Below are positions 14,839 to 32,704 of a DNA stretch of 32,704 nt, piece by piece (positions within the stretch are counted from its first letter, which is position 1; every line of letters starts with the position of its first letter). The notes under the pieces were generated by a model. That model was not told the DNA's origin, ran no database searches, and saw only the letters and a program-made list of their open reading frames with translations. Made by a program: the position numbers and the translations under genes. Origin of the DNA: an uncultured Thermoplasmata archaeon (GTDB taxonomy: Archaea; Thermoplasmatota; Thermoplasmata; Halarchaeoplasmatales; Halarchaeoplasmataceae); NCBI GenBank assembly GCA_964399335.1, contig CAYNQI010000006.1, positions 1 to 32,704 on the forward strand. The letters run 5' to 3'.

Positions 14839-14841
14839 AAA

Positions 14842-14900: not shown

Positions 14901-14917
14901 GTAGCTTAGTTCGGCAG
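14901..14917 (+). repeat. 17-nt exact copy of tRNA-Thr positions 7-23 (GTAGCTTAGTTCGGCAG), 58 nt upstream of the intact gene, embedded in an imperfect hairpin
   Basis: Identical to 14976-14992. The flanking TAGTTCGG (14908-14915) can pair with CCGAACTG (14946-14953). Confidence 0.6.
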
Positions 14918-14969
14918 TACGTCAGAAAGGATTTCTAACTCACTACCGAACTGATCTATTAACACATAT

Positions 14970-15043
14970 GCCACCGTAGCTTAGTTCGGCAGAGCGGCTG
15001 ACTTGTAATCAGCAGGTCGGGGGTTCAAATCCCTCCGGTGGCT
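14970..15043 (+). tRNA. tRNA-Thr (anticodon UGU)
   Basis: Perfect cloverleaf: acceptor GCCACCG/CGGUGGC, D stem GCUU/GAGC, anticodon stem GCUGA/UCAGC with loop C-U-UGU-A-A, and T arm GGGGG-UUCAAAU-CCCUC. Confidence 0.9.
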
Positions 15044-15995: not shown

Positions 15996-17012
15996 TTAAA
16001 GCATCTTCCTTCCTTCACGTTTGAAATACTCCTCTAATTTCTCATTCGGATCAGAATAATCTTTACTCAAATCTCCTAAATGAGAGATAAATTTTTGGAA
16101 GTGTTTATATGGATATATATTCGATGTAAGTTCCTCATCTTCTACATTAACCCATTTCACACCGAGTTCTTGGTCTGCTGGTTTTACTCCGTTTTCACCA
16201 TCTACACCTGCCCAGCTGAAGAAGTACATTGCTTTATGTAGGTCAACACCTACAACTTTAGAACCTACTATGTTTTGATAAAGACCGGGAAGAAATGTTT
16301 TCAAAAGTTTCTCTCCATCTTCCCTTACTTCAACCTCATCATATCCTTTTTGTATATCTAATAGATCCCTCATACTATGGTTGGGGAACATATCGATTAT
16401 TTCTGGATCCATCATGTCCATTTTAGTGAAGAAAACTATCGGGTGTAATTCTTCAGATGTTTTATTAGCTTTATACTCCTCATAGCGTGATAAAATTTGA
16501 GACATCTCAGCATCATACCTTCGCATTGTAGTGCCTTTTTCACTCCTGATATCCTTTGTTAATTTAGAGCAATCAACTAGAATAACCATTATATTGCTGT
16601 TGAAAACTTCTTTGATCTTTTTTGTAACAGATTTATGATTACCAAATTCTTCGATCTCCTCACCTGACACATCGAATACAGTGAACATCAATTTATTCTC
16701 ATAATTAAATGCATTTTTAAGTCCACTTAAACCCTTTTCTGCTTTAATATGTTTAAAAACATCACTTTTTGTTGCCTCAAAATTCATCAAAAAACTCAAA
16801 GCTTGAAAATCTCCTCTAGCAGTTGCCCTTGGAAATTCACCAGCATGTAATCTATTTCGTATTTTATTGAGACAAACATCAGTCGTTTCAGGATCCATAT
16901 AATAAGCGAATTTTTTAGGATTCTTGATCGTATATTTTTCCATCGATTGATGTAAAAACCCAACTAACGTTGATTTTCCACAACCTCTGGTTCCTATTAT
17001 AGATACAGGCAT
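15996..17012 (-). CDS. P-loop GTPase-like protein (338 aa)
   Basis: N-terminal Walker A GTRGCGKST, a hhhhDxxG motif (FTVFDVSGEE), a Walker-B-like IMVILVDCS, and a TKMD G4-like motif (FFTKMD, compare NKxD/HKxD). Confidence 0.7.
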   Translation of the reverse strand: MPVSIIGTRGCGKSTLVGFLHQSMEKYTIKNPKKFAYYMDPETTDVCLNKIRNRLHAGEFPRATARGDFQALSFLMNFEATKSDVFKHIKAEKGLSGLKNAFNYENKLMFTVFDVSGEEIEEFGNHKSVTKKIKEVFNSNIMVILVDCSKLTKDIRSEKGTTMRRYDAEMSQILSRYEEYKANKTSEELHPIVFFTKMDMMDPEIIDMFPNHSMRDLLDIQKGYDEVEVREDGEKLLKTFLPGLYQNIVGSKVVGVDLHKAMYFFSWAGVDGENGVKPADQELGVKWVNVEDEELTSNIYPYKHFQKFISHLGDLSKDYSDPNEKLEEYFKREGRKML

Positions 17013-17081
17013 TTTCGTTCACCGAGCTGTAAACGTATTTTAATTATATATCATTTATGGTTATATCTCCATCAGAAAAGA

Positions 17082-17960
17082 TTATTTCCGAATCTCAGAA
17101 AGTATTTCTTTCTGAGTTTTTGATGTTTTTATTTTATTACCGATATAAGATATCATATCTATATATTGAAAATAGGGATAGATCAATACGTTTGGGTGAA
17201 GATCAAAAGGTTCAAATCCATCGGGTTTAGGATGTATTCTATGATGTTTATTGCTGACTATGGTATAGGTACTAAAAAAATAATTTGCCCCCGCCGTATT
17301 TTTTTTATTTATCAAATTCCAAGTTTTTGGAAGATTATTCTTCATTAAGATCATACCGGCCTTTCTTTTAACCTCTTCTTGGGAATCCTCTTTAGTAAAT
17401 ATTTTAAATATCAACTTTTTACCTTTATCTATTGGTAGATTTAAGACTATGAACATATAATTTTTAGAATTGGATCTTTGCTTAAAATATTCATTTAGTA
17501 ATATTGAAAGGTTTTTATCATAAAAACTATCAACCTTTGTAATATCTATAATAACCCCTAGTATCTCATCTTCTACGATCCTATCAAATCTTTCTGGTAA
17601 ACCGATTTTACCGAAATCATGCTGGCCAAAATTTATAATTCTAATCGAGGTTCTCTTCATGTCGTTATCTTTTGATTTATCTTTTTTTAATGCACTTCCT
17701 AAGTTTCTCATAAATTTATTTAACCCATTATACGGAAACCCAGCAATTAAACAGATTTCATCACCTTTGCTTAATCTTCTTTTAGTTTTAGAACCTAATC
17801 TATTCTCTTTTATGTGAAGTAATCTGAGGCTTTTAGAAGGTATATAAAAAGAGAAACCACTATTCTCATCTCTTACACTATATCTCTCCATAGATTTATG
17901 TAGGAGAACAGAAAACTCGTCGAACATTTTTTTCCTTAATGTGATTATAGACACGCCCAT
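17082..17960 (-). CDS. Degenerate paralogue of the upstream GTPase (pseudo-GTPase, P-loop lost)
   Basis: The N-terminus MGVSIITLRKKMFDEFSVLLHKSMERY aligns with MPVSIIGTRGCGKSTLVGFLHQSMEKY of the neighbour, but GKST is replaced. The later segments VIIDITKV and FIVLNLPID are also collinear. Confidence 0.6.
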   Translation of the reverse strand: MGVSIITLRKKMFDEFSVLLHKSMERYSVRDENSGFSFYIPSKSLRLLHIKENRLGSKTKRRLSKGDEICLIAGFPYNGLNKFMRNLGSALKKDKSKDNDMKRTSIRIINFGQHDFGKIGLPERFDRIVEDEILGVIIDITKVDSFYDKNLSILLNEYFKQRSNSKNYMFIVLNLPIDKGKKLIFKIFTKEDSQEEVKRKAGMILMKNNLPKTWNLINKKNTAGANYFFSTYTIVSNKHHRIHPKPDGFEPFDLHPNVLIYPYFQYIDMISYIGNKIKTSKTQKEILSEIRK

Positions 17961-17974
17961 AATATCATCTTTTT

Positions 17975-19480
17975 CTAAATAGTATAAATATCTCGTTCAT
18001 CTTTCTCTTCGACTTCAACCCTTTCCCCTATTTCTCCGAATAATTTATCTTTGTATTCTTTAAAGAACATATGAGGATGAGTACTCTTAGATATTCCTAC
18101 TTTCTCTTCTTCTAGTAAAATCCCGATTCCATAAAGACAGCCCAATATTGGAGAAGATGTGTGGATCTTTAGGACCTTAAAGTCTCCATTTGTATCAAGA
18201 TTGTTAAAATATTTTGCCTCCTCTATCTCCGAGAAGTTTTTGTTCCAATACTCCATATAATAAATAAAATTCTTTCTCCATTCAGGATCCGTCTGGAGGT
18301 AATCTACGATATCGTCTTCAAGACTTTGATCGTATTTAATTTCGTTCCGTATCTTTGTAAATAACTTTTTATTCCTTCTATTTTCTTTTATTATCTTAGC
18401 CCAGCCATCCTTTGAATCGAGTTCAAAAGTAGTATCTTTTTCCGCTTTATCTTCCATTACCTTTTCATCTGTATTTGAAGATTCCTCAGTTGATAAATTT
18501 TCAAAAGTTTGAACTTCTTGTTTCGGTCTTTTTTCCATAATGACCTGGTTTTCTTCTAATTCTTCTATCATATCTCTAAGCTCGTCTACAGAATTAGGAT
18601 CGTTTAGACGATGTTCAATCTCCACTGTATCTAACGTTCGACCTTGATATTCTAATAATGAATATTTTTTTCTGAGAAATATTAATTCTTTAATGTTTTC
18701 CTCGTATTCACTAAATAATTCTTCACCTTTATCAAGATCATCTTTAAGTGTATTGATTAATTTGTCTACCTGAAAACCTTCATCTCTCCAGTCTTTTGCT
18801 TTCATTAAAAGTTTCTTTTTCTTTTTCCTCCTTTTAATCTCCTTTTTAAGCTTTCTAACGATTCTTGAGGCCTTCTCTACCGAATCTGGATCGTTCAAGT
18901 ATTCTTCAATATTATCACTAAAAGCCATGTTGTATTTATCAAGAGGTAAAGATTGATATCTTTTTTTTACAATTTTTAATCTTTCAATTCTCTTATTATA
19001 TTCATCGATAAGGTCCTCACCTTTAGAGGGATTATTTTTTATCTTAGCTTTTAATCCAGAAACATCCCACCCTTCTTCTTCTAACTCTTTTAATTTGCTA
19101 AATAATTTCTTTAATCTCTTTTTTTTATCGATCTTCATTTTTAGTTTGTTGACTATCCTCGAGGCTTTTTTTACCGAATCAGGGTCATTCAGATATTCTT
19201 CGATATTTTCACTAAAAGCCAAATCGAATTCATTCAATTTTAAAGAATTATATCTCTTTTTAATAATCTTTAATCTTTTAATCCTTTTCTTATATTCCCT
19301 TATAAAGTCCTCACCTTTAGAAGGGTCATCCTCTATCTTATTTTTTAAACCAGAAACATCCCAACCATCGTTTTCCCAGTCTTTAATTATATCCAATAGT
19401 TTATTTATAGATTCTTCTCTTTTTCTTTCCTTTTCTCTATCCTCGGATATCTTATCTATGATTGGTTTTTTTTCTGACAT
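17975..19480 (-). CDS. Basic/acidic coiled-coil protein with three tandem ~85-aa repeats (EGWDVSGLK.KI...PSKGE..I.EY..RI.RLKI.KKRY.SL.L....AFS.NIEEYLNDPDSV.KASRIV.KLK)
   Basis: The repeats are visible at both protein and DNA level (~18.57-19.39 kb). No known domain recognised. Confidence 0.65.
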   Translation of the reverse strand: MSEKKPIIDKISEDREKERKREESINKLLDIIKDWENDGWDVSGLKNKIEDDPSKGEDFIREYKKRIKRLKIIKKRYNSLKLNEFDLAFSENIEEYLNDPDSVKKASRIVNKLKMKIDKKKRLKKLFSKLKELEEEGWDVSGLKAKIKNNPSKGEDLIDEYNKRIERLKIVKKRYQSLPLDKYNMAFSDNIEEYLNDPDSVEKASRIVRKLKKEIKRRKKKKKLLMKAKDWRDEGFQVDKLINTLKDDLDKGEELFSEYEENIKELIFLRKKYSLLEYQGRTLDTVEIEHRLNDPNSVDELRDMIEELEENQVIMEKRPKQEVQTFENLSTEESSNTDEKVMEDKAEKDTTFELDSKDGWAKIIKENRRNKKLFTKIRNEIKYDQSLEDDIVDYLQTDPEWRKNFIYYMEYWNKNFSEIEEAKYFNNLDTNGDFKVLKIHTSSPILGCLYGIGILLEEEKVGISKSTHPHMFFKEYKDKLFGEIGERVEVEEKDERDIYTI

Positions 19481-19646
19481 ATTGTCACCATAAGACCTTT
19501 ATTCATATCAATAATCTCTTAGGATAAAAAAATTTAGTCTATATCTCATTAATCTAAACATGTTAATTCCGTCCAATATCTATTTTATAAAGGAAAAAAA
19601 CTATATTATATTAATCTAATACCGAGCTGCAAAATAGGGTGGACAC

Positions 19647-20984
19647 ATGGCTAAAAGATGGAGAGATATAAAAAACGATAGTGATGACGTAGTTGCTAGG
19701 TTTTTAGAGCCAAATGACGTAAAAGGTATTACGAGTCAAGATATTATAATAGGTCCTAACGAAGCCGCTGTTATAATCGAACAAGGTAAAATAGAAGACG
19801 TTATTACTCAATCTAAACAAAAGAATTTTGGGACCAGTTTGTTAAAGCGTTTTGAAAATATAATTTTTGGATCTAAAGATTCGAGAATGCTATTTGTTGA
19901 TACGAGTCCTATTGATGTGACCGGGAAAATCAATAATATAGCAACAAAGGACAACGTTAGGCAGGATGGAATCTGTATGTTAAGATTCCAACTAGATGTT
20001 AACAACGCACATAAATTATTAAATCTGATTAAAAATAAAGACAAACTTACGATCAACAATATACGGGAAAAGATAAGCGATGAGATTACAGCCAATGTGT
20101 TTTCACCTTATATACACAAATATAACGTTGACGAATTTAAAGGGAATACTGATGTACAGGATGACATCGAAGAAGCAGCAATGGTAGAGATGAGAAAAAC
20201 TTTCGATATGTGGGGTTTGAATTTAATAAATCTTTCAACGAAATGGCATATCAGTAAACACGAGAAAGTTGAAAGGCAAGTTAAAGATGCTGAATTGGAT
20301 GAGAGAAAAAAGGATATAAGAACTGAAAAAGCTAAAGGGAAGATAAATAGGGAATACGATGTAAAATCCCATCTAGAACAAGAGCAGTATAACCAAAGAG
20401 ATCAACATATGGAACATAAACAGGATTTGGAATGGAAAAACATTAAATTTGAAAGAGATAAGCAAAAAACAGGAGTTGACCATCAAGAAGAGATCAAAAC
20501 TAGAAAGAAAAAAGGAGAGATCACTAGAGAAGAGATGGAATGGGAGATGGACAAAAAAGAGATGGAAAGAGCCTTGGACTGGAAGGATCGAATGAATAAA
20601 CAGAAAATGGAAAAAGAAGAACATGAAACAAAATTGGAGATAAATAAGTTTCAAGAAACTGAGTTAAAGGAGAAAGAAGTGGAAGCGGACGTTAAAAAAA
20701 CAAAAGCTCAGGTAGAGGCTGAGAAAGCAAAGCATAATTTAGAAACATATAAAGAAGCCGAAGACAGAGAAAGAAAACATCAATTAAACATGACTGGTCA
20801 GATGGCAAATTTGATGAATGCATCTAAACAGGATATGCCTAATACACTCGTTCAGGGAACTGATAAGACATCTACGAACATCCAAGACAATCAAAACCCT
20901 GGAAAAAAAGATTCGTGCCCAAATTGTGGATCAAATGTAGATAAAAATTGGCAGCATTGTCCAGACTGTGGAGAAGAAATATAG
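19647..20984 (+). CDS. Flotillin-like protein: SPFH/band-7 domain, long E/K-rich coiled coil, C-terminal Cys4 zinc ribbon
   Basis: SPFH-like N-terminal ~200 aa (IIIGPNEAAVIIEQGKI..., ATKDNVRQDGICMLRFQL, WGLNLINLS). Residues ~200-400 are a charged heptad-rich segment. Ends CPNCG...CPDCG. Confidence 0.65.
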   Translation: MAKRWRDIKNDSDDVVARFLEPNDVKGITSQDIIIGPNEAAVIIEQGKIEDVITQSKQKNFGTSLLKRFENIIFGSKDSRMLFVDTSPIDVTGKINNIATKDNVRQDGICMLRFQLDVNNAHKLLNLIKNKDKLTINNIREKISDEITANVFSPYIHKYNVDEFKGNTDVQDDIEEAAMVEMRKTFDMWGLNLINLSTKWHISKHEKVERQVKDAELDERKKDIRTEKAKGKINREYDVKSHLEQEQYNQRDQHMEHKQDLEWKNIKFERDKQKTGVDHQEEIKTRKKKGEITREEMEWEMDKKEMERALDWKDRMNKQKMEKEEHETKLEINKFQETELKEKEVEADVKKTKAQVEAEKAKHNLETYKEAEDRERKHQLNMTGQMANLMNASKQDMPNTLVQGTDKTSTNIQDNQNPGKKDSCPNCGSNVDKNWQHCPDCGEEI

Positions 20985-21014
20985 TATAATCCATCTGGTA
21001 TAAGATAATGTATT

Positions 21015-21560
21015 ATGTTTGAGAATTTAGCTCTGTATCCATATCCGAGCGTTATTCTTTTTACCAGCGGTATTATCTTATTGTTATTGTCAAATATGAC
21101 TATCGATGACAAAAAGTCAAGTGAAAATATATTAAATTTATTTGGACAATTTTTTGGTTTTTGTTGGGGGATAACAGCTTTAACTTGGGGTATCATAACA
21201 CTCGGTTCTCCAATATATACTGGTTGGATGGTTGGAGGCTTGATATTGGTTGGATTATCTTTATTTTTGAGACCTTTAAAAAATATTCCATGGGCTACTC
21301 TTGTTGGTTTAATTTTTTCAGGTGCGATAACAGCCTTTTTAGCTATGAATATGGATCCTGTAATCCATTTTGGCATAGATTTTAGGTGGATACTGGCTAT
21401 CGTCTTTCTAGCTGTTATGTTTATACTTTATTTAATATGTAAATTTATAGAAGACCTATTTGAATTAATAGGATTGATATTAAGTAATGATCCTATTTCT
21501 ATGTTGATCGGATTAGGATGTTTTATAGGAGGAATAGCTAGTTTAGTAATATATTATTAA
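21015..21560 (+). CDS. Small polytopic membrane protein (5 TM)
   Basis: Regular hydrophobic helices. Preferred over the antisense ORF 20891..21376, which has no membrane or domain signal. Confidence 0.55.
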   Translation: MFENLALYPYPSVILFTSGIILLLLSNMTIDDKKSSENILNLFGQFFGFCWGITALTWGIITLGSPIYTGWMVGGLILVGLSLFLRPLKNIPWATLVGLIFSGAITAFLAMNMDPVIHFGIDFRWILAIVFLAVMFILYLICKFIEDLFELIGLILSNDPISMLIGLGCFIGGIASLVIYY

Positions 21561-21644
21561 GTCATATATCACTTCTAGTTAATAAAATATATTTTACGGG
21601 AAAAGTATTTATTTTTTTATTTTATTAGCCCTAATTGTGAAAAC

Positions 21645-22154
21645 ATGGTATTAGGAACAGTAGTAGAGGGAGTAGCAAGGATAATCGTGAATTACACAGG
21701 TTATAAAAGAGGACAAGCAAAAGAGGATGATTTAGCAGTAAGGAAAAGACTGATGAGTGAACTTGATAAAAGTAAAAACAATCTTCGTAATTCATTAGAA
21801 TACATGTATGAAAATGAAAATAAAAAAAGTTCTAAAAAGATCAGAAAGGTTTTAGATGAGATTGATATGTTCTCAAATGAGGTTGATCTTTCAGAAACAG
21901 GTCATCACTATCCTTTTTTCGATCCTAAAAAAAGTATAAATGATAAAGATATCGAGCAGGTCGTAAAATTTGATAAAAAGATTTTAGATACTTGTATAAA
22001 CATCACTGAAGCCACTGAAGAAATACAGCAAAGACTCATCAGCGGAGTAAATATAGATTCTATTCAAGAGTTTAATAGTTTAAGACAATACATCACAAAA
22101 CTAAGAAACAAATATAAAGACCGTTTGGATTATATCAAAAAAATCGACACCTAA
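21645..22154 (+). CDS. Hypothetical charged protein (169 aa)
   Basis: ORF only. Confidence 0.45.
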   Translation: MVLGTVVEGVARIIVNYTGYKRGQAKEDDLAVRKRLMSELDKSKNNLRNSLEYMYENENKKSSKKIRKVLDEIDMFSNEVDLSETGHHYPFFDPKKSINDKDIEQVVKFDKKILDTCINITEATEEIQQRLISGVNIDSIQEFNSLRQYITKLRNKYKDRLDYIKKIDT

Positions 22155-22179
22155 GTAAGTTATAAGATTAATCACGTTA

Positions 22180-22953
22180 CTAGATGTTTAAAACTTTCTT
22201 TGCATTTTTGTAGAATACTTTCTTTATAGTCTCTTCGCTCCTCCACTCCACATCCATCCTATGTAATGTTTTTTTGACTCCTCCATAAGGTGTATCACTA
22301 CCGAACATCATCTTGTCATCTTCAACCATCAATGATAGTACCTCAACTCGATGTTTTTTATTAATTGATAAATCCATATATATATTATCCTGTTCATTAG
22401 CCATCTTTATGGCATCGCTCTGTTCGGTGATACCAGCATGCGCTAATATGATAGGTATGTTTGTAAATGATGGTAGAATATCTTTTAATTGATCAATATA
22501 TTTTCCTTCTTTATGGGCAGAATGTATCAATATAGGTAGATTCAATTCTGTAGCCTTTTCATATATAAAATCGATCTCGTCACACTCGAAATCCTGCGCG
22601 TAAGGGTGAAGTTTTAAACCTTTCATATCTAAGTCTATTGCCCTTTCCATCTCTTTTTCCCAAGCTGGATGATTTGGATCTATCCTAGAAAACCCGATAA
22701 GTGGATCATATTTTTTTACTAGTCTATGGATAGTGTTATTAGCATCTTTGAAACCATCCTTAGGACCGGTGTTAAATGGAAATATGACAGCTTTCCTGAT
22801 ATTGTATTCTTTCATATCTTTGTATAGCTTGCTGGGATGATTTTTGTCTTCATCATCCTTATCTTTACCTATATGAACATGGACATCTATCTTAGGAACA
22901 TTCCAAATATCTACCGTATCATCTTCTTTAGATTGGTTTTTATCGTCTGTCAT
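22180..22953 (-). CDS. Amidohydrolase-2 (TIM-barrel metal-dependent hydrolase) family protein
   Basis: IDVHVHIG (HxH) at the first strand, with later ILIHSAH and ILAHAG His motifs and a terminal D. Confidence 0.7.
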   Translation of the reverse strand: MTDDKNQSKEDDTVDIWNVPKIDVHVHIGKDKDDEDKNHPSKLYKDMKEYNIRKAVIFPFNTGPKDGFKDANNTIHRLVKKYDPLIGFSRIDPNHPAWEKEMERAIDLDMKGLKLHPYAQDFECDEIDFIYEKATELNLPILIHSAHKEGKYIDQLKDILPSFTNIPIILAHAGITEQSDAIKMANEQDNIYMDLSINKKHRVEVLSLMVEDDKMMFGSDTPYGGVKKTLHRMDVEWRSEETIKKVFYKNAKKVLNI

Positions 22954-22979
22954 GATATCACCGATAAGATTATACTACT

Positions 22980-24176
22980 TTATTCAAATATCCTCCTTAC
23001 CTCTTCCATCTTATACCCACATTCTACACAGCATTTCCATTCACTTTCTACTTTTGTTCCGCAACTTGGACAATATCTTACTCCCCCATCGATCTTCTCG
23101 CCCGTAAAAACACTATAATTTCTAGGGACTTTTAGATTTTTTTCTGCTACCTGTCTAATTATAGAATCATCTATTTTCTTTTTGCCATTACCTATATCAG
23201 ACCTAACAGCAACAGAATTATCCAATTGTGTACTGCCACTTTCTCCTGAACCTCCAATATTAGACCTTAAAGCTACTGAATCTTTAAGTTGGGTAGCCCC
23301 TTCCCCCAATTTTTCTTTCACTTTATCTCCTTTGACCAGATCTCCGTTTACCTTATCACCTTGTATCTGTTCTCCTATCTCTACCTTTGTCTCTCTAAAA
23401 TGGACAGCATCAACCCGTCTATAGTTGGTATTTTTCTGTGCCTTACCTTTTAGAATGTACGTCAATGGTATAGACAGGTTCATGATCTCTTTCCAGTCGT
23501 TAGATGAATCCACTTGATTTATGGTCCATTCGATACATGATCTGATAGGTTCCTCATCATATCCTTCACCTATCAAAAGCAAACTTTCTAAAGCTAAAGC
23601 TGTGACTTTTTCTTTATTTATCCACCCCCTCTCTGTTCGTTCCTTTTTATAATGGTCTTTTTTGATAGAGTTCTTTAAGAAATCAGCTGTTAATGATAAT
23701 TGAGCAGGTTCTGCATAAGAATAAAATAAAGCTTGTAATGCGTAAGAACTCACCCAAACTTTTTCGTACCAGCTTCCATTAGGATACCTTTTCTGTAACA
23801 ATACATCTGCAATATTAGGATAGCTGATACCATACTTACCCAGTGCTTTTATTATCAAAGAATCCAGCCATATCTGGTTTGTCCACCCATTTCTTTTTTT
23901 TTCCTTTTCCAGTATTTTGATATAGTTTTTCATATCGCTCTCAGTATAACCAAGTTCTTTTGCAGATAATAGAAAGTATGAGATCGAGATAGTATCCATA
24001 TCTAACATGAATTTAGCTTCCGTCTTTTTTAATAATTCTTCAGCTATCTCTTCTTCGATACAAGATAAAAGCCGTATACCTGAACTTATGTACCTAATAT
24101 CATTAGATTCGTAAAGGCATGATAAATCAAATGTATTAAAATTCCTCTCTAAGCAATTTACAACTTCTTTTTTCAT
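22980..24176 (-). CDS. Alpha/alpha-toroid (prenyltransferase/terpene-cyclase-like) repeat protein with a G/S-rich duplicated linker and a C-terminal Cys4 zinc ribbon
   Basis: Repeats of the form NGW....D..II.AL..YG, NGSW....VSSYALQALFY and RGW....ALALESLLLIG. Duplicated TQL(K/D).SVA(L/V)RS(N/D)IG segment. Ends CPSCG...CVECG. Confidence 0.55.
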   Translation of the reverse strand: MKKEVVNCLERNFNTFDLSCLYESNDIRYISSGIRLLSCIEEEIAEELLKKTEAKFMLDMDTISISYFLLSAKELGYTESDMKNYIKILEKEKKRNGWTNQIWLDSLIIKALGKYGISYPNIADVLLQKRYPNGSWYEKVWVSSYALQALFYSYAEPAQLSLTADFLKNSIKKDHYKKERTERGWINKEKVTALALESLLLIGEGYDEEPIRSCIEWTINQVDSSNDWKEIMNLSIPLTYILKGKAQKNTNYRRVDAVHFRETKVEIGEQIQGDKVNGDLVKGDKVKEKLGEGATQLKDSVALRSNIGGSGESGSTQLDNSVAVRSDIGNGKKKIDDSIIRQVAEKNLKVPRNYSVFTGEKIDGGVRYCPSCGTKVESEWKCCVECGYKMEEVRRIFE

Positions 24177-26050
24177 TTAACAGCCTCCTCCGATAGAGCT
24201 TTTAGATTTAAAGATAATTTCATAATATCTCTTTTCCTAGACCCAACCTGATTACTTAATTCTCTTTTCAACCATTGAACTACATTATCATTTTTATATC
24301 CTATGCTATTTAAGCAATCATATATGATTGCGGTGGCCTTCACGTTATCGGTTTGTTTACATTCCCAATGGTTTTCTTTCAATAAAATTTTCAGTTGACT
24401 CAATTCTTTACTTGCATCTAAACCAGATATAATTAAACACTCAACAATATATGCTATCACCCATGAGGGAGTAAATTCACTTATCCTATTACGGAGCTTT
24501 TCAGCGAGTTCCTTTTTTTCCAATTCCTCTCCACCCAATTTACTCATAACAGAAAGTGCATAAGCAGATATCCAAAGTTGTTCATCCTCTAATATACCAC
24601 CTCTTAGTTGATCCATAACTTTCTTGGCATTTTGTCTATATATTTCTCTTTCTGTTTCTTCATAGATGAATAAGGTTTCTAATAATAGAAGTGTATGGTA
24701 AAATTTAGACCCAGAATATTTTTTCAAAAGAGTATTTACCAATTCTTCACATCTTATTTTTTCCATCGTTGGATTACATTTCATTAAAGCTAACAACGAA
24801 TTGGCATACTCTTTATAACTTATCGTATAAGATTGCTGGATTGCTTTTTCTAACATTTCATAGGCTTCTTTAATATCCTCATCCCATTCAATCTCTTTTC
24901 TTACTTCTTCTTTTTCAACAAATTTAAATTTAATTTTACTTTCTGGAAGTGGTTTTTTCTCATAATCTTCCATAGTAGCCCCGAAAAGTTCTGATACGTA
25001 TTGATCCTTTTTCTTTGAGAAAAGATGTATCTGCCAATCAGCTAGGTTTCTCTTATGTTTTAAAAATCTTTTCAAAGGTTTGATCTGTTTTTCGTATCCC
25101 ATTTCCTTGATCTCGGGTTTTAACCAGTCAAAAAATGCTTTTATAACCTCTATAGTAGAAGAGTCTGATACATTTTTATAATGAAAGCACCTTTTCATAT
25201 CTCTCTTTATAAAGAAACTAGAAGACATACCATTTTTAATAGCTTTGTTTCTGTTATGACCTATATTTATATTTGGTACCCATTTGACTTTATCCAATTT
25301 TACAGTTAACGTTCGAAACAAAGCTGCATAAGCTACTGTAAGAGGGATATATGGATGGGTATCTAATAAACGTATTTCCAAAGTTGGTTTATATTCATCT
25401 GAGGCCTTACATTTTTGGGTAAAGGGAGATAGGTCGTAATACCTGCTTTTTTTCCTTTTTTCCTCATAAGAGTTTTCATATTCAAAACAAGAAAGATACC
25501 CTCTTTTAATATCTTCTTCGTTAAGGTATGGTGCAGGTTTTATGTTTGGATTTACCCTTTTTGAAGGATCATAAGTATCCATACTGGCCCTAACAGACTT
25601 CCATTTCGTGATATGATTGTCATGGATCGGTGAATTAGAACTTAAAGCAAATATTTCTGGAACAAAGATTCTGAGAAAATTATTGAGTCTCAATTTTCTC
25701 TTATCAGAATTTGCATCGATATGATGCTGTTCTGCAAAATATTCTCCAACTCTACCCTTAGTATGAGGGTTCGCAGCTGTTCCAATTAAGAATAGGTCAC
25801 ACTCACGGGCTGCTTCGTTTACAACTTCTCTCAGTTCTATCAGTTGTTCCTCAAGTTCTTCTAAAGTTTCACAGGTATCAGTAGCTATTTCCAGTTGGGA
25901 CTGGTATTTATCTTTATATATACCACCTTTTCCAAATTCATAATATTTATCTGGTACTTTATCTAATATCTTTGGGACTTCGTAAACCAGGTGCCCATTT
26001 TCATTTACTACTTGTATTTCCTGCTCAACACCGTGTTTCAAATCTATCAC
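24173..26050 (-). CDS. GCS2/YbdK-type carboxylate-amine ligase fused to C-terminal alpha/alpha-toroid repeats (625 aa)
   Basis: N-terminal ~370 aa carry the glutamate-cysteine-ligase-family-2 pattern (HGVEQEIQVV..., EIATDTCETLEE..., FLIGTAANPHT). The C-terminal ~250 aa carry repeats such as QLWISAYALSVMSKLGG. A 4-nt ATGA overlap joins it to the downstream gene. Confidence 0.6.
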   Translation of the reverse strand: MIDLKHGVEQEIQVVNENGHLVYEVPKILDKVPDKYYEFGKGGIYKDKYQSQLEIATDTCETLEELEEQLIELREVVNEAARECDLFLIGTAANPHTKGRVGEYFAEQHHIDANSDKRKLRLNNFLRIFVPEIFALSSNSPIHDNHITKWKSVRASMDTYDPSKRVNPNIKPAPYLNEEDIKRGYLSCFEYENSYEEKRKKSRYYDLSPFTQKCKASDEYKPTLEIRLLDTHPYIPLTVAYAALFRTLTVKLDKVKWVPNINIGHNRNKAIKNGMSSSFFIKRDMKRCFHYKNVSDSSTIEVIKAFFDWLKPEIKEMGYEKQIKPLKRFLKHKRNLADWQIHLFSKKKDQYVSELFGATMEDYEKKPLPESKIKFKFVEKEEVRKEIEWDEDIKEAYEMLEKAIQQSYTISYKEYANSLLALMKCNPTMEKIRCEELVNTLLKKYSGSKFYHTLLLLETLFIYEETEREIYRQNAKKVMDQLRGGILEDEQLWISAYALSVMSKLGGEELEKKELAEKLRNRISEFTPSWVIAYIVECLIISGLDASKELSQLKILLKENHWECKQTDNVKATAIIYDCLNSIGYKNDNVVQWLKRELSNQVGSRKRDIMKLSLNLKALSEEAVK

Positions 26051-26606
26051 TCAACTAAAATTGTATAATATTTCAAATTAATAAAATTATTGGTCAAATA
26101 GATTTTGTAATGGTGAACTTTTACATTTTTTCATGAAATTAAAAAGATAATATTTATATGTATTTTGTATGTTAGAAATAGACAAATCTACCTTGACTCT
26201 GACCTTAACTCGATTTCAAATTCACGGCCCAATATTTTTTAAGCAGTTTTTCAGTTTCTACTTTAAGCGATCTATAAAGGATGTCCGCACAAAAAAGTAC
26301 ACCAAGGTGTGAATAATAACCTTGTTTTCTTTCTCTGCCTATGATGTTCATCTAGGGTATAATCAGGGGTTTATTGAATATTATATAGAAAATAGGGATT
26401 GATAGGCCTCTTCATCTTTGTCTTTTTCACATAATTAAATCTAATTTTTAGTTGAAATCGAGGTAAACATCAATCTTCTGATCTTTTTTTGACTTTAGTA
26501 ATGAAATATTTAGGCTTATTCAATTTTCGTTTTCTAAATATTAATAAATCAACGGAGGTCAAACATATTTTCATAAAGATTTTAACATATCTACAAGCTT
26601 ACACTC

Positions 26607-27389
26607 CTAGAAGGGTTTCTCGTAGTCCTCGTAGATGACATCCTGCCGTAAGTTATTCAATTCCTCTTCAATTTCCGCCTTTTTCTGAGTTATACTTTCA
26701 GAAGCATCTTTGTATGTTTCTAAATCAATTTTTTCATCTGCAAGTTGTTCAGCAAGTGAAGTCTTTTTATCATCTAAGCTTTTTATTTCTTCTAAAGATT
26801 CGTTGTACACTTCATATTTGTTTTTTAGCTCGTTTAATAGATTTTCAGCCTTATCAATATCCATATTTTTAATTGCATCAATTATAGGTCTTTTATCTAT
26901 CATACTTTCCCTTTCTTCTAATGAAGATACTTCACCTTCTATCTTCTCTATTTTATCTGTGATCTTATTTCTTTCTTTGATTAGAGAGTTTGCCTCTTCA
27001 AAATTTCTGTTATCGATCATCCTCTCAATATCACTCGTTTTCATATACCTAGTAGACTCTTTTAATTCGTCTAATTTACTATCTAATTTGACTAATTTTT
27101 CAGCAATCGATAGACCTGCAAAAGTAGATGATTTTGGTTTAGACAATTTTTGAGGCTTTTTAGGGATAGGTCTTTTTTTATCAGTTGCCTCAAAACCCTC
27201 TTTTCTTTGTTTAACTAGTTCATTAGCACGCCCATATAATCCCTCCTTTAATGCCTCTTCGATATCACTTACGTCTTTTCCTTCTCTTTTCAATTGAGAT
27301 AACTGTTCTTCTAAAGATTTAATCCATGGGATAAATCCTCCCCGGATATTGATAAGCTGCTCAGCAGTAGTGTAATCTCCACTCATCAT
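26607..27389 (-). CDS. Paralogue P1 of the 'YEDYxKPF-tail' family: soluble coiled-coil N-terminus plus the conserved C-terminal module (MID.R motif duplicated)
   Basis: C-terminal ~105 aa are collinear with P2-P5: ...MIDKRPI...LAEQLADEKIDLETY...LRQDVIYEDYEKPF. Confidence 0.7.
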   Translation of the reverse strand: MMSGDYTTAEQLINIRGGFIPWIKSLEEQLSQLKREGKDVSDIEEALKEGLYGRANELVKQRKEGFEATDKKRPIPKKPQKLSKPKSSTFAGLSIAEKLVKLDSKLDELKESTRYMKTSDIERMIDNRNFEEANSLIKERNKITDKIEKIEGEVSSLEERESMIDKRPIIDAIKNMDIDKAENLLNELKNKYEVYNESLEEIKSLDDKKTSLAEQLADEKIDLETYKDASESITQKKAEIEEELNNLRQDVIYEDYEKPF

Positions 27390-27599
27390 ATATCGTTCTA
27401 TATCTTTTGTTTTTATATAAGGAACTTCACGTTTAATTTTGTTGAGTTTTTTTTCAATATTTATGCTAGATTCATCTGCTATATTATCACCAGTTAATTT
27501 CGCACTCTTAATCGAATAATTAGTTTATAAACATTCCTATTTTGTTAAATGGAGTTTTAATTTGATTCTTTTAGGTCCGTCTAAATCCAAACCTTAATA

Positions 27600-27932
27600 T
27601 TGTTAGACAAACATCACAGTTTGATGAACTTGATATCATTGATAGTAATTTTGTATCTTCTTATGATAAATTTTTCTTCATTTTTGTTGTTCGGGATAGA
27701 TAAGTATAAAGCAAAAAATAATAAAAGAAGAATATCCGAGAAAAATCTTTTTTTCCTGTCTTTTATAGGTGGCATTTTTGGATCTCTATTAGGTATGAAA
27801 ACATACAGACATAAAACTAAGAAATTGAGCTTCAATACTGCTATCTTTTTCTTGTTAATATGGAACTTTTTCATATACCTAATCATAATAGACCAGTTAT
27901 TTTATGAGATAATCAAGTTCATACCTATTTAA
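27600..27932 (+). CDS. DUF1294-family small membrane protein
   Basis: FGIDKYKAKNNKRRISEKNL...GGIFGSLLGMKTYRHKTKK.SF matches the DUF1294 DK.A...RI.E..L..GG..G...HKT.K pattern. In bacteria this domain is often fused to a cold-shock domain. Confidence 0.6.
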   Translation: MLDKHHSLMNLISLIVILYLLMINFSSFLLFGIDKYKAKNNKRRISEKNLFFLSFIGGIFGSLLGMKTYRHKTKKLSFNTAIFFLLIWNFFIYLIIIDQLFYEIIKFIPI

Positions 27933-28043
27933 GATGAGAGAGAACCTTGAGATTTTTTTGGTAAAATATTACATCATCTTTAAGTTCTAAAGAAAAATTC
28001 ATTTCACTTAAGCTTCTGAGGAGGTAAAATATTACATTCAACT

Positions 28044-29123
28044 TCAAAACGGTTTCTGGTAATCTTCATAGATGACCTCATGTCTTAGTTTGTTCAACCT
28101 CTCTTCTAGATCAGCCTTCTTGTGCTCTATACTTTGGACGGCGTCATAGTATGTGTTTTTATCTATTTCATAATCAGCTAACTTTTGAGCTAAAGAGCTT
28201 TTCTTATCATCTAGCGTTTCCAATTCCACTATCGTTTCTTTGTATTCCCGATACTTTTCTTCCAAACCTGATAAAAGTTCTCCAGCCTTCTTTACATCAC
28301 CTTCATCTAAAGCTGAATCGATACCTCTTGTATCTATCATACGTTCATCTTCCTTGAGTTGAGAGATCGTCTTTTTTATATCACTCAAGGAATTATATGC
28401 TTTCCTATCTTTACTAATTTCTTCAATTGTTTTACTTTTTTTCTGAGCAGTTTTTACTTTTTTACTTCGTCTGACCCATACAGTCTTATCTATAGATTTT
28501 TCGAATCCTACCTGATTTTGGTAAATTATTTTCAGATCGAGAGATGAGTTTTCTCTTGTTGTTTTTCCTTTCATATACACCTTATTAACCCTATTTTCTC
28601 CAGCTTTCAATATATCTATTGCTGAATCTTGTCGGATCTCTGTCCCTCCTTCAGATCGAATACGGATATTGAATGCATCGTGGTTTCCTAAATTGGAGAT
28701 GATTATGTCTTCCCTTGTCCACTTCTCCGGACGGAGTTCTATATTTTCAACTTCAACTTCTAAATCTGGGAAGGCCCTCCATATCCTTTCCCTATCTTTT
28801 AAAGTTCTAAATATCTGCTCCGTATTTTTGTCTCTTGCAGAATGCCCAAGACCTTTTCCTCTAAATATGATTATACTCTTTTTTGTTTTTATCTCGATAT
28901 ATTTGGGGTTCATCCATATATCAAATAAGTTCATTTCGATATGTTCTATCTCTGAAGGATGAATTCTTATATTTTGTTTCTTTCCATGATATCTTATCTC
29001 GTGTCCGATTATCAATGTTCCCTTATCTGGTACCGGGGATCCCCATCCTTCTAGGCCCTCTTTTTCTTTTTGGGTATAAAAACGAACACTTTCAAACCGA
29101 GATTCATTTAATTTACTCTTCAT
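28044..29123 (-). CDS. Paralogue P2: soluble N-terminus (possible bacterial-PH-like fold) plus the conserved C-terminal module
   Basis: ...ERMIDTRGID...LAQKLADYEIDKNTY...LRHEVIYEDYQKPF. Its last 34 nt, stop codon included, are identical to P3. Confidence 0.7.
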   Translation of the reverse strand: MKSKLNESRFESVRFYTQKEKEGLEGWGSPVPDKGTLIIGHEIRYHGKKQNIRIHPSEIEHIEMNLFDIWMNPKYIEIKTKKSIIIFRGKGLGHSARDKNTEQIFRTLKDRERIWRAFPDLEVEVENIELRPEKWTREDIIISNLGNHDAFNIRIRSEGGTEIRQDSAIDILKAGENRVNKVYMKGKTTRENSSLDLKIIYQNQVGFEKSIDKTVWVRRSKKVKTAQKKSKTIEEISKDRKAYNSLSDIKKTISQLKEDERMIDTRGIDSALDEGDVKKAGELLSGLEEKYREYKETIVELETLDDKKSSLAQKLADYEIDKNTYYDAVQSIEHKKADLEERLNKLRHEVIYEDYQKPF

Positions 29124-29398
29124 TTTTTTTGGTCCATTTTCTTGTCTTTGGAATTAGAGATATATATTTATAATTTTATCTTCAACCTAAAACCCTTCTA
29201 CCAATCTTAGTAAATGACTTTCTGTCGTGATCTTTCGAGTCTGTTTTTTTAGCTAATTTCTCCACGCTTTTTTTTGCGGAACCCCTCGTTACGATTTCTA
29301 ATCCTCTCGAATGTCTATCAATTCCGATCCTATCGGTTCTGAAAACAATTACATAGTCTGATGTTGGCGTAATTTTCTAATATCCCTGTCAAAGTTTG

Positions 29399-30532
29399 TC
29401 AAAACGGTTTCTGGTAATCTTCATAGATGACCTCTTTGCGAAGCCTGTTTAATTCTTCCTCAAGATCTGACTTTCTCCATCTTACACTCTCACTAGCATC
29501 ACTATAAGTTTTTCTATCGATCTCACCGTCAGCTAATTTCTCGGCCAATCTACTCTTTCTATCATCTAATTTACCTAACTGTTTTAATGTATCCTTATAC
29601 TTTTCATAGTTTTCTTTGAGATCATTAAAAAGTTCCTCCGCTTCCTCTACTTTATTTTCTTCTAGGAGAGTTTCTATTTCTCGGGTATCGATCATTTTTT
29701 CTTCTTCTTTTAAAAAATCGATCTCTTTATTTAATCTCTCTTTTTTCTCGCTTATACTTTCTTTAAAGCTTTCTTTTGATAAAGGTGGTGGCATCGGCTG
29801 GTTATCTTTACTTGAAGTTCTTTGATCCTCTTCTGATCTTGTTGGAAATGGTTGGTCATAAGAGTTAGGTTTTGATGGTTGTTGTTGCCATCGTGCTCGC
29901 TGTCTATCATATCCATATTGCATTCTCTCTGGCATTGATTTAGTTGTATATATTGTTCCAAAAGCTACTAAATTTAATATCCCAGCGGCTATGGACATGA
30001 ACCAAGAATATGTTCCACCCCATGACAAATGAAAATTAGAACCATAAATATCCTCATTACTCGATCCGAAGAAGCTTTCATGGGGACCAGATTCGGAACT
30101 GTAAAATTCCTCTTCATTCCAAGCATCAGGTAGTGAAACCATCATATAGACAGGCGCTATCAAAGCAATAATGAAACCGATTAGTACAAGTACAGCACCG
30201 ACTTTTGGAGACAATTTCCCTGTAGCTACAATAAATGCCCCTACACTTCCAAGAGCAGTAAAGAAAATGGAGATCATTACGAATATTTTAGACATATTTA
30301 ATACGTCTGCGGGTTCAAAATCCTCTGGATATTCATCTCTCTCAGTATCTGTACCGTCATAATCCTCCGATGAAATTTCCATCTCATCAAAATATAAATC
30401 AAGGCTAGTAGCTCTATCATCATCTTCTGGTTCAATACTGTAATTATACCAAGGTAGTAAGAAAGTAAATGAAAGGAGTACTAATGCAACAATTGTTAAT
30501 CCTAATCCAGCAACTACTTTCTTTTTTACCAT
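29399..30532 (-). CDS. Paralogue P3: N-terminal signal/TM region, D/E-rich segment, three further TM helices, P-rich linker, then the conserved C-terminal module
   Basis: ...EKMIDTREIE...LAEKLADGEIDRKTY...LRKEVIYEDYQKPF. Confidence 0.7.
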   Translation of the reverse strand: MVKKKVVAGLGLTIVALVLLSFTFLLPWYNYSIEPEDDDRATSLDLYFDEMEISSEDYDGTDTERDEYPEDFEPADVLNMSKIFVMISIFFTALGSVGAFIVATGKLSPKVGAVLVLIGFIIALIAPVYMMVSLPDAWNEEEFYSSESGPHESFFGSSNEDIYGSNFHLSWGGTYSWFMSIAAGILNLVAFGTIYTTKSMPERMQYGYDRQRARWQQQPSKPNSYDQPFPTRSEEDQRTSSKDNQPMPPPLSKESFKESISEKKERLNKEIDFLKEEEKMIDTREIETLLEENKVEEAEELFNDLKENYEKYKDTLKQLGKLDDRKSRLAEKLADGEIDRKTYSDASESVRWRKSDLEEELNRLRKEVIYEDYQKPF

Positions 30533-30639
30533 AATATCGATTCAAGTTCATTAGAAAATAATAAAAGAAATATATATCACTTATGAACAGATGAAAGATT
30601 TGAGTCTTTTATATACCTTAAATATTATGGTTAACTTTT

Positions 30640-30950
30640 GTGAGAGTTTGAGAGAGCTGTAAGTCCTCTTCTTTTAGTGAGTGGATATACGGACTCTCTC
30701 AAAAAGGAAAACCTCATCTGCTACTTTCGTAAAATTCTGGTGTCGGGATGTCGGAAAGCTCCCAGTTCCCCAATCTGATGGAGAGCGTTAGGACAGGAGA
30801 GGATGAACAACTCTCCTGAATGAATAAAGCCTCTTCTGACATCAGGAGTACCGTGACCGTACTCGAAGTCGCTATTGACGACCTAACCTCTGGATACTAC
30901 CCGTAGAGAGACAAGTTAGCGAGGTGGATGAGGAGGTCACTAGTCTCTGT
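30640..30950. ncRNA. Candidate structured RNA of unknown class: a ~310-nt GC-rich (~48% against ~30% background) island packed with perfect hairpins. Strand undetermined
   Basis: Hairpins include CAGGAGAG-9nt-CUCUCCUG (30793-30817), GAGUAC-7nt-GUACUC, and AGAGAC-31nt-GUCUCU. CUGAUG (30772-30777) pairs with CAUCAG (30838-30843) to enclose a sub-domain, and a GAGAG/CUCUC helix sits at the 5' end. There is no ORF. Confidence 0.35.
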
Positions 30951-32018
30951 CTAGAATGGTTTTGCATAATCTTCATGAATCACCTTGTTGCGAAGATCAC
31001 TTAATTTTTCTTCTATTTTTGCTTTTCTATATTCAATACTTTCACTGGCATCTCGATACGTTTCTCTGTCTATTTCACCATCAGCTAATTTTTCAGCTAG
31101 TGTAGTTTTTCTTTTATCTAGAGATCTTATCATATCCAATGTTTCTTGATATTCTGAGAAATCTTTTTTCAATGAAGATAGTTCCTCATTGATTTTTACA
31201 AAATCCTCTTCAGATATTGCTTTCTCTATCTCTCTAATATCTATCATCGGTTCTTCTTCTTTAAGATCTTCAATCTCTATTTTTGCCTCTGCGATTGTTG
31301 ATATTTCAAGTTCAGAGTCCTCATCCCTATTTTCATCTTCCTCTTCTTTTTCATTCTCCTTTTGTTCCTCTTCCTGGACTTGATTATCTTCTTCTAGATG
31401 GTAGTCTTCGGGGATATAAGGGAGAGATGGAGATTCTTGTTTGTTAAAAGGATAGTTTTCCTCTTCGTCCTCTTGATCTGATGTGGGAACAGATTCAAAA
31501 TCATCTGTAGATGTTTCTATTTCCTCAATAGTTCTTCCACCTATTAGAACTATAACAATACCAACAATAACAAGCCAATAACCCATATTCGCCTGGAATA
31601 CAAAAAAAGGTAATTCATATGCATCAACTAGTATAATGAACCAATAACCTTCAAAAATCAAAAGTACAGCTAGAGTTATATACCCATATTTCAAAACTTT
31701 ACTTTTACTCTCTGCAGAAGAAAATAACAAGATCAATACCGCTGCAATAGGGATGATGAAGACTATACTTAAAGATCCACCTACAATGTGATAACCATCA
31801 ATAGCTAGATTTAATCCGGATAAAGAAGAAAACCAATTCAAAAAGAAAGATAGGATCATAATTATACTTCCAACAATCGATAACGCTGCACCTACAGATA
31901 GACTTTCCCTTGGCTTGATAAATCCTAGGTTTTTCTTTTCTCTCTCCTTTTTTAAAGATGTTATTTCAATAACTGCTTTTACAATAATTATAACTGCGAT
32001 TATAAGCGTGAAGAACAA
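30951..32018 (-). CDS. Paralogue P4: five-TM N-terminal domain, long acidic linker, then the conserved C-terminal module
   Basis: ...EPMIDIREIE...LAEKLADGEIDRETY...LRNKVIHEDYAKPF. Confidence 0.7.
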   Translation of the reverse strand: MFFTLIIAVIIIVKAVIEITSLKKEREKKNLGFIKPRESLSVGAALSIVGSIIMILSFFLNWFSSLSGLNLAIDGYHIVGGSLSIVFIIPIAAVLILLFSSAESKSKVLKYGYITLAVLLIFEGYWFIILVDAYELPFFVFQANMGYWLVIVGIVIVLIGGRTIEEIETSTDDFESVPTSDQEDEEENYPFNKQESPSLPYIPEDYHLEEDNQVQEEEQKENEKEEEDENRDEDSELEISTIAEAKIEIEDLKEEEPMIDIREIEKAISEEDFVKINEELSSLKKDFSEYQETLDMIRSLDKRKTTLAEKLADGEIDRETYRDASESIEYRKAKIEEKLSDLRNKVIHEDYAKPF

Positions 32019-32158
32019 ACATACATTTTTAGGTATAATATTATTTCCTCCGCATGCACTATACCTAATATATATTAACTATATATAATTTATTTTTCCA
32101 CTCACCATTTCTATGTTTTCTTCGGGCCTTTTATTAAGATATCGTTAAAATACATTGT

Positions 32159-32704
32159 TTAAAAAGGTTTTTCATAATCCTCGTAGACCACCTTATTTCG
32201 AAGTTTGCTTAGTTTTTCTTCTAACTCTGCTTTCCTATGTGTAATACTTTGATTTGCATCATTATAAGTATCCCGGTCTATTTTTCCATCAGCCAATTGT
32301 TCCGCTAATGAATATCTTCTTTGATCTAACTTTTTCAATGTATCTAAAACTTCTGTATACTCTTCATAGTTCTCTTGGAGTTCAAACAGATGATCTTCAG
32401 CTCTTTCTATTTTCCCCTCCTCTAGAGCTTGATCTATTTTCCTTGTATCTATCATCTTTTCATCCTTCTTTAAAGAATCGATGCCTTTCTCTATCTTTTT
32501 GATCTTTTTTAGATGATCATTATTCTCTTGTGATAAATTTCTAGAACCCTCTAATAATTTATCATTAGATCCCATGTTTCTATTTGTAGTATTTTGAAAT
32601 CTTTCTAGTTGTTTGTTTCCATCGAATTTAGTCTCTGAATCTTCTACACTCTTTTGAAACCTTTCTGAATAAGGTGCTGGTGGGGGAGGTGGTTTCTGTT
32701 GATA
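32159..32704 (-). CDS. Paralogue P5, partial: the ORF stays open to the window edge, the N-terminus lies beyond 32704, and there is a Pro-rich linker
   Basis: ...EKMIDTRKID...LAEQLADGKIDRDTY...LRNKVVYEDYEKPF. The reading frame continues without a stop past the annotated Met at 32575 (...YQQKPPPPAPYSERF...). Confidence 0.65.
   Translation of the reverse strand, partial: YQQKPPPPPAPYSERFQKSVEDSETKFDGNKQLERFQNTTNRNMGSNDKLLEGSRNLSQENNDHLKKIKKIEKGIDSLKKDEKMIDTRKIDQALEEGKIERAEDHLFELQENYEEYTEVLDTLKKLDQRRYSLAEQLADGKIDRDTYNDANQSITHRKAELEEKLSKLRNKVVYEDYEKPF

Follow-up and report, generated by a model that had tools for sequence, protein, structure and literature searches.

A GCS2-type ligase fused to an alpha/alpha toroid, its toroid-bearing partner, and an Amidohydro_2 enzyme: a conserved cassette of uncultured Thermoplasmata-type archaea that may modify protein tails

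We analyzed a 32,704-nt stretch of DNA (hereafter, the window; contig CAYNQI010000006.1, assembly GCA_964399335.1) from an uncultured Thermoplasmata archaeon, in which three consecutive minus-strand open reading frames (ORFs) form a compact cassette, namely P1 (24173-26050, 625 aa), P2 (22980-24176, 398 aa), and P3 (22180-22953, 257 aa). The P1 stop and the P2 start share the sequence ATGA, P3 follows P2 after 26 nt, and Shine-Dalgarno-like motifs (GAGTGA, GGAGGAGG, and GGTGAT) precede the three starts, which bears out the overlapping operon described in the original prediction for this locus. The window is part of an archaeal chromosome, with genes for PcrB/GGGP synthase, a tRNA-intron endonuclease, DUF2070, HisRS, and S8e, and is 99-100% identical to Kulunda soda-lake sediment contigs and to GCA_019594545.1. 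The sole related reference genome recovered by a scan of genome contigs was a Thermoplasmata metagenome-assembled genome from soda-lake sediment, a habitat dominated by KTK 4A, an uncultured group of Thermoplasmata (PMC6146748). The cassette comprises the following elements, all on the minus strand:

24986-26050, minus strand: P1 residues 1-355, GCS2/YbdK-type carboxylate-amine ligase domain (Pfam GCS2)
24884-24985, minus strand: P1 residues 356-389, inter-domain linker (predicted local distance difference test, pLDDT, <50 for residues 356-386)
24176-24883, minus strand: P1 residues 390-625, domain X, modelled as a complete 12-helix alpha/alpha toroid
23412-24176, minus strand: P2 residues 1-255, domain X', a paralogous alpha/alpha toroid, whose ATG overlaps the P1 stop
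23097-23411, minus strand: P2 residues 256-360, conserved repeat segment (FRETKVEIGEQI, GDK[VI] units, and DSVAxRSxIG units)
22983-23096, minus strand: P2 residues 361-398, C4 zinc ribbon (CPxCG...CxxCG; Zn_ribbon_3)
22180-22953, minus strand: P3, Amidohydro_2 metal-dependent TIM-barrel enzyme (Pfam, 77.4 bits)

The N-terminal domain of P1 has a GS-like ligase fold and matches PF04107 (GCS2) at 57.4 bits, against a gathering threshold of 21 (E = 1.9e-15). The catalytic motifs of GCS2 proteins consist of an Ex[EH] motif in strand 1, acidic residues in strands 2 and 3, an [HDQ]x[NH] motif in strand 4, and an Ex[RK]x2D motif in strand 6 (PMC2588565). Aligned to the YbdK motifs, the catalytic residues of P1 are G7-V-E9-Q-E11, E54, Q108-H109-H110, and E225-I-R227-L-L-D230, each of them either invariant or conserved to at least 90%. 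The predicted GCS2/YbdK-like N-domain is thereby confirmed, and the motifs show P1 to be a carboxylate-amine ligase of the GCS2/YbdK family that depends on ATP and is, as judged from sequence, catalytically intact. No NCBIfam equivalog passed its cut-off for P1 (NF010039, the best, scored 77.5 bits against 371, and TIGR02050 scored 74 against 176); P1 lies within the GCS2 Pfam family, outside all characterised orthologous groups. Its closest known counterparts are the YbdK/GCS2 enzymes (E. coli YbdK, 1R8G; Salmonella, 1TT4; and the plant and archaeal gamma-glutamylcysteine ligases), from which the P1 family differs by (i) invariant VNPNIKP, RKKSRYYD, and SPFT segments found in it alone, and (ii) a C-terminal toroid together with an obligatory toroid partner gene, likewise unique to it among the described GCS2 enzymes.

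A search of 5.8 billion proteins yielded full-length P1 homologues in 22 clusters (38-100% identity, 611-635 aa), all with PF04107; one 556-aa fragment among them is N-terminally truncated, and one shorter relative lacks the C-terminal domain. Since the fusion is conserved across these 22 clusters, an assembly frameshift as its origin was ruled out. The P1 start is probably TTG 26041, which lies 5 nt downstream of the Shine-Dalgarno-like GAGTGA and gives the N-terminus MKHGVEQE common to all homologues, as well as a length of 622 aa, which one JGI gene call also has; GTG 26050, on which the ORF list and the NCBI protein rely, is probably wrong. The linker that follows the ligase domain is 13-79% identical across homologues and only weakly kept in the distant ones.

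Neither P1 residues 385-625 nor P2 residues 1-255 matched any Pfam family, and the Pfam toroid models, SQHop_cyclase and Prenyltrans among them, all gave no match up to E 10 for the window copies. Some toroid homologues have weak Pfam matches (the Terpene_synth N domain in 5 of 13, best 3e-5; SQHop_cyclase_C, 1e-3), and each toroid profile gave only sub-significant matches against PDB sequences, the top ones being terpene cyclases. In AlphaFold2 models, which here and below rest on shallow alignments of 17-21 sequences, we found twelve helices arranged in a closed double barrel that is superposable on known alpha/alpha six-hairpin toroids. The original prediction had recognised repeats of the same kind in both proteins, and indeed P1 and P2 carry paralogous alpha/alpha toroids. 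It had further assigned three or four hairpins to each protein, as if the two polypeptides completed one shared six-hairpin toroid. Although only three or four repeats with W-containing motifs are recognisable in the raw sequence, P1 residues 390-625 model as a complete 12-helix toroid and the P2 toroid is shown to be its full paralogue, which contradicts the split arrangement and leaves it scarcely credible.

The toroids also lack every catalytic signature that we sought. There is no DxDD motif in either toroid and no invariant Asp in P1 residues 390-625 or P2 residues 1-255; no invariant Cys, His, or Asp is available in either for the Zn-ligand triad of the protein prenyltransferase beta subunit and LanC (Asp/Cys/His or Cys/Cys/His); and the CGEQ thioester motif is absent, the nearest conserved motif being IGEGYEEE in P2. 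Moreover, TED, transcobalamin, and GH76 folds score as well as terpene-cyclase-like folds. The likeness to prenyltransferases and terpene cyclases in the original prediction stands for the fold class, whereas the Pfam models, the DxDD motif, and the Zn triad fail for the window copies. A terpene-cyclase-like or prenyl-handling role, in which the toroids would pair as a class II beta-gamma didomain for isoprenoid chemistry and the ligase would attach the product, is very improbable in view of these absences and of the equal scores of the other folds. Because they are without the catalytic signatures of known toroid enzymes, the two domains are taken as non-catalytic and are likely to serve as substrate-holding modules. 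They belong to the six-hairpin fold class, probably as distant relatives of the terpenoid-cyclase/TED superfamily, sharing that class with the toroids of SHC, drimenyl-PP synthase, prenyltransferase beta, C3d/TED, and the transcobalamin alpha domain, but differing from them in (i) their compactness (∼235-255 aa), (ii) the lack of DxDD, Zn ligands, and CGEQ, and (iii) their occurrence as a paralogue pair on two coupled polypeptides. When 1.84 billion cluster representatives were scanned exhaustively by HMMER with the P2 profile, zinc-ribbon proteins dominated the matches, and the P2 N-domain was present in only ∼10 representative clusters, plus the P1 family (P0022, E = 1.2e-7). The X/X' toroid is accordingly a new domain family, found in only these two proteins among the representatives scanned.

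Downstream of its toroid, P2, whose homologues form 17 clusters, carries a repeat segment composed of FRETKVEIGEQI, three GDK[VI]-type units, and two or three DSVAxRSxIG units. This segment (residues 256-360) is 35-65% identical across homologues, with conservation equal to or greater than that of the toroid in most comparisons, and despite this conservation it is modelled as disordered (pLDDT <50). The C-terminal CPSCG...CVECG element has two CxxC knuckles, in which C369, P370, and C372 are invariant, and is modelled at pLDDT 70-80; its Zn_ribbon_3 match is borderline (26.5 bits against a cut-off of 27, E = 4e-6), and homologues carry PF13240 or PF13248, so that the Cys4 zinc ribbon noted earlier can be retained. 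The P2-type repeat module and zinc ribbon also end other proteins in related loci (L009 6971-8404 and 8412-9062; P0045, P0050, and others). One such protein has a beta-helix-like N-terminal region with a weak, sub-threshold Ice_binding match.

P3 was correctly recognised beforehand as an amidohydrolase-2 gene following P2: it matches PF04909 (Amidohydro_2) at 77.4 bits against a threshold of 26.4, and the metal ligands (HxH, His, His, and Asp) are present. The HxH, KLHP, IHSAHK, ILAHAG, and FGSDxPY motifs are kept in five lineages, and because these include the ligand motifs P3 looks like an active enzyme. Among proteins of solved structure, the closest to P3 in sequence are LigW 5-carboxyvanillate decarboxylases and the uncharacterised amidohydrolase 3cjp (E = 1e-7 to 1e-8), and for this reason "hydrolase" should be taken as a family label and not as an established activity. 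While P3 shares Pfam membership and metal ligands with the ACMSD/LigW/COG2159 TIM barrels, it is short (∼250 aa) and distant from the characterised ones (E = 1e-8), and it is specifically linked to P1-like GCS2 genes, also outside the fusion family.

The linkage of the three genes was examined in loci (labelled L001, L002, and so on) on short metagenomic contigs from a few related environments, which gave ∼10 distinct cassette lineages, 9 of them testable for P1-P2 adjacency. In all nine, P2 comes directly after P1, the two genes either overlapping or lying a few bases apart, and P3 adjoins the pair in seven of the nine: its place is downstream in the window and L008/L009 lineages, but upstream, with an overlap onto P1, in L002, L003, L015, L025, and L026. 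In L006/L013, P3 is 6.6 kb from P1-P2. The retention of the trio through these rearrangements of gene order argues for a functional unit. Furthermore, P0023, the nearest GCS2 relative without a toroid (29% identity), has a specific P3 homologue two genes away (Amidohydro_2, 428 aa; 32% identity, E = 4e-29); the ligase-Amidohydro_2 pairing thus predates the fusion. The P0023 locus (L027/L028) also contains a 233-aa protein and two flanking VWA-domain proteins, one of which ends in a ∼45-residue poly-Glu stretch.

An all-against-all comparison of the loci revealed a run of five paralogues immediately upstream of P1 and on its strand, which we name the YxKPF-tail family after their common C-terminus:

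26607-27389, minus strand: YxKPF-tail member, 260 aa, directly upstream of P1, ending ...VIYEDYEKPF-COOH; candidate substrate or partner
28044-29123, minus strand: YxKPF-tail member, 359 aa
29399-30532, minus strand: YxKPF-tail member, 377 aa, with hydrophobic, membrane-helix-like segments
30951-32018, minus strand: YxKPF-tail member, 355 aa
32159-32704, minus strand: YxKPF-tail member, truncated at the window end (L001 copy, 250 aa)

A sixth copy lies beyond the window end in L001 and L011. The family is defined by a conserved, helical, coiled-coil-like C-terminal module of ∼100 residues, and all of the >40 copies stop exactly at [ED][ED]Y[EQA]KP[FY]-COOH, with Y106, K108, and P109 invariant (LRQDVIYEDYEKPF is an example of the tail peptide). 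The exact conservation of this free C-terminus implies, at the level of sequence, an end-dependent recognition. The N-terminal parts are mutually unrelated and include five fn3 domains with a transmembrane helix (L025), CARDB (L013), and zinc ribbons (L016). Because the module of the fn3-bearing member follows the transmembrane helix and a basic stretch, it is suggested to face the cytoplasm; many family members are membrane or surface proteins, with the module apparently on the cytoplasmic side. Stand-alone modules of 76-107 aa without an N-terminal part (e.g., P0196, 76 aa) also occur elsewhere. With regard to a RiPP-type cluster, in which a short precursor-peptide gene would adjoin the modifying enzymes, we found no conserved small ORF within the cassette itself, and the gap upstream of P1 measures 556 bp in the window and only 80 bp in L006; the stand-alone modules, however, do exist at other sites. 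Searches of Pfam and PDB with the module gave generic coiled-coil matches only, and no description of a YEKPF tail was found in the literature, so that the module represents a new conserved C-terminal module that is currently unannotated. A word-indexed search with the module profile returned 11 short members only and missed known ones, which makes it unusable for phyletic counts. Between two of the tail-family genes, on the opposite strand, lies a DUF1294 membrane protein gene (27600-27932, plus strand; 81 bits); a GenBank-derived call at this site, on the other strand (L001 7541-7813, 90 aa), is probably spurious.

In 8 of the 10 lineages, tail-family genes are found at most two genes away from the cassette. 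Flanking copies number four in L002, five in L003, five in L006/L013, and two in L016, and are also present in L015, L017, and L025; in L006, the lineage in which P3 is no longer next to P1-P2, P3 overlaps a tail-family gene by 8 bp. The linkage of the cassette to the family is strong, not absolute.

On these grounds, our favoured explanation, which we put forward tentatively, is that P1, P2, and P3 act as a writer/eraser system on YxKPF tails. P1 and P2 would form a stoichiometric heteromer through their twin paralogous toroids, and the toroid cavity would hold the YxKPF tail, by analogy with the prenyltransferase beta barrel that holds CaaX tails. P1 would then couple a carboxylate, after phosphorylating it, to an amine, in an amide bond involving the invariant Lys or the terminal Phe carboxylate, whereas P3 would reverse, remove, or process the bond made by P1. 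The likeliest substrate would be the invariant YxKPF-COOH tail in which the multi-paralogue, coiled-coil-module proteins of the neighbouring genes end, and the chemistry could be (i) gamma-glutamylation or acylation of the tail Lys, (ii) ligation at the terminal carboxylate, or (iii) an isopeptide cross-link. A precedent for this ligase superfamily acting on protein tails is provided by PafA/Dop (PMC2588565). The fuller proposal of an archaeal tail-modification system, in which toroid "readers" grip the free tail, the GCS2 ligase reversibly alters or cross-links the cytoplasmic tails of an entire protein family (surface, membrane, and soluble), and the Amidohydro_2 enzyme serves as the eraser, is possible yet more doubtful; such a system would be a counterpart of pupylation or tubulin tyrosination made from other components.

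Several observations weigh against a tail substrate. The L008/L009/L010/L012 lineage has the cassette but no tail-family gene within ∼7-8 kb (the second exception among the 10 lineages is a contig too short to judge), and, conversely, a 348-kb contig carries an array of six tail-family members with no cassette within 10 kb, its neighbours being a 156-aa protein and an SPFH-zinc-ribbon protein, as in the window and L002. It may also be that the tail family is no more than an abundant one that has expanded locally. The substrates of characterised GCS2/YbdK members are small molecules (Glu plus Cys), and Amidohydro_2 enzymes of known function are mostly decarboxylases, hydratases, and lactonases acting on small aromatic acids; given this, and given that the best solved relatives of P3 are LigW decarboxylases, P3 may not be an amidase.

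The known substrates of the two enzyme families favour the main rival, a small-molecule pathway, in which P1 would make a gamma-glutamyl-type or other amide metabolite (a low-molecular-weight thiol, compatible solute, or cofactor intermediate), P3 would carry out the next or the previous step (decarboxylation, hydrolysis, or cyclisation), the toroids would hold this metabolite or else a ligand of hydrophobic or isoprenoid nature, and the linkage to the tail family would be indirect or coincidental. The closest relatives of the ligase in sequence and structure are YbdK and glutamate-cysteine ligases, small aromatic acids are the substrates of P3's relatives, and toroids of this fold often bind small ligands (terpenes, cobalamin, and sugars); the pathway thereby agrees better with what GCS2 and Amidohydro_2 enzymes are known to use. 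In addition, gamma-glutamyl thiols are known in haloalkaliphiles, the host type here. However, a housekeeping ligase would need no translationally coupled, non-catalytic toroid-zinc-ribbon partner; with 22 clusters among the 5.8 billion proteins, the family is extremely rare; no other biosynthetic genes are conserved around the cassette in the loci compared; and the adjacency of the tail family, which survives rearrangements, is left unexplained. We regard this pathway as possible though not probable. Overall, the interpretation in the original prediction finds partial support.

Two conserved neighbouring genes are of uncertain membership in the system:

21645-22154, plus strand: 169-aa protein with a weak PIN_4 match (20.3 bits, below the cut-off); homologues in L002, L006/L013, and L019/L022
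19647-20984, plus strand: 445-aa SPFH/Band-7 and zinc-ribbon protein (Band_7, 26.4 bits); homologues beside tail arrays in L002 and L019/L022

The SPFH-zinc-ribbon protein and a 150-170-aa protein recur as a pair beside tail arrays (L002 and L019/L022), with or without the cassette. This recurrence would suit a complex with a structural or regulatory role in a system of the membrane cytoskeleton or of surface proteins, to which the cassette, the tail family, and these two proteins would all belong; the toroids would dock the C-terminal tails without covalent chemistry on them, and the ligase would act elsewhere (e.g., on a lipid head group or P2's own repeat segment). The heads of the tail family, which include five fn3 domains, CARDB, and membrane-helix-like segments, and the conserved yet unstructured P2 repeat segment are consistent with such a complex. 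Against it, the intact ligase and hydrolase sites imply chemistry on some substrate, and several cassette loci lack the SPFH and 169-aa genes; we consider it improbable.

Further from the cassette, a pair of GTPase-like genes that are distant paralogues (15996-17012 and 17082-17960, minus strand; 24% identity), the first of which matches DO-GTPase2 (33 bits), adjoins a gene for a 501-aa, Lys/Glu-rich protein (17975-19480, minus strand) with three ∼100-aa tandem repeats (GWDVSGLK...PSKGE...KKRY...IEEYLNDPDSV...) and no family match. A short, 283-aa tubulin/FtsZ-family GTPase-domain protein is encoded at 12733-13584 (minus strand; Pfam Tubulin, 134 bits). The half of the window with the cassette, the tail family, and orphan genes (17000-32704) has a GC content of 0.29-0.36, and the housekeeping half (7000-15000) one of 0.36-0.41. 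An AT-rich neighbourhood, lineage-specific genes, a DO-GTPase2 gene 5 kb away, and a multi-copy tail family with diversified heads could indicate an anti-virus or conflict system. We judge this highly unlikely, since PADLOC and PHROGs gave no significant matches (those to PADLOC being non-significant or coiled-coil only), no plasmid or phage homologues were found (apart from E. coli ybdK itself, PADLOC, PHROGs, and a plasmid collection yielded nothing of relevance), and the context is chromosomal, with housekeeping genes. Gamma-glutamyl cyclotransferase (GGACT/AIG2-like) genes, whose GGACT enzymes cleave gamma-glutamyl-amine bonds, are present in the window (5304-5717, minus strand), 18 kb from the cassette, and in L022 (1016-1504), directly upstream of a tail array without the cassette. 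They may be relevant to gamma-glutamyl-lysine chemistry, or coincidental, and as they are not adjacent to the cassette we did not use them as evidence. Overall, docking, terpene-cyclase-like, split-toroid, and defence roles are less likely than the small-molecule pathway.

Returning to the putative tail modification by the cassette, we compared it with the known tail-ligation systems. With the Pup system (the PafA ligase, the deamidase/depupylase Dop, and Pup), it shares only the ligase fold and the logic: its hydrolase is an unrelated TIM-barrel Amidohydro_2 enzyme and not a PafA paralogue, and the linked tails end in YxKPF, with no GGQ or GGE, on a module that is mostly the C-terminus of large proteins and not a free tag. 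No match to the Pup_ligase Pfam family was obtained, and no proteasome genes occur in any cassette locus examined. Tubulin tyrosine ligase with its carboxypeptidase, RimK/S6, and LysX/LysW/LysK are alike in concept, each combining an ATP-dependent amide ligase and a hydrolase with an acidic, aromatic-containing C-terminal tail whose free end matters, a likeness that belongs to background knowledge; their ligases, however, are of the ATP-grasp and not the GS/GCS2 fold, and no toroid is involved. We found no description in the literature of the fusion, of a GCS2 domain with a toroid, of the toroid pair, or of the YxKPF tail module.

In summary, the cassette is a conserved, cytoplasmic one of uncultured Thermoplasmata-type archaea that may constitute a new system for modifying protein tails, and the chance that the whole system is new is substantial. 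Even with a small-molecule substrate, it would define a new GCS2 subfamily that is currently unannotated, as are the toroid family and the C-terminal module. If tail modification is correct, the cassette would represent a third independent route to post-translational ligation on protein tails, after the ATP-grasp ligases and PafA; alpha/alpha toroids would gain a new role in recognising a protein C-terminus; and the system would show by what means the cytoplasmic tails of surface proteins are regulated in Thermoplasmata-type archaea, which are wall-less or poorly known.

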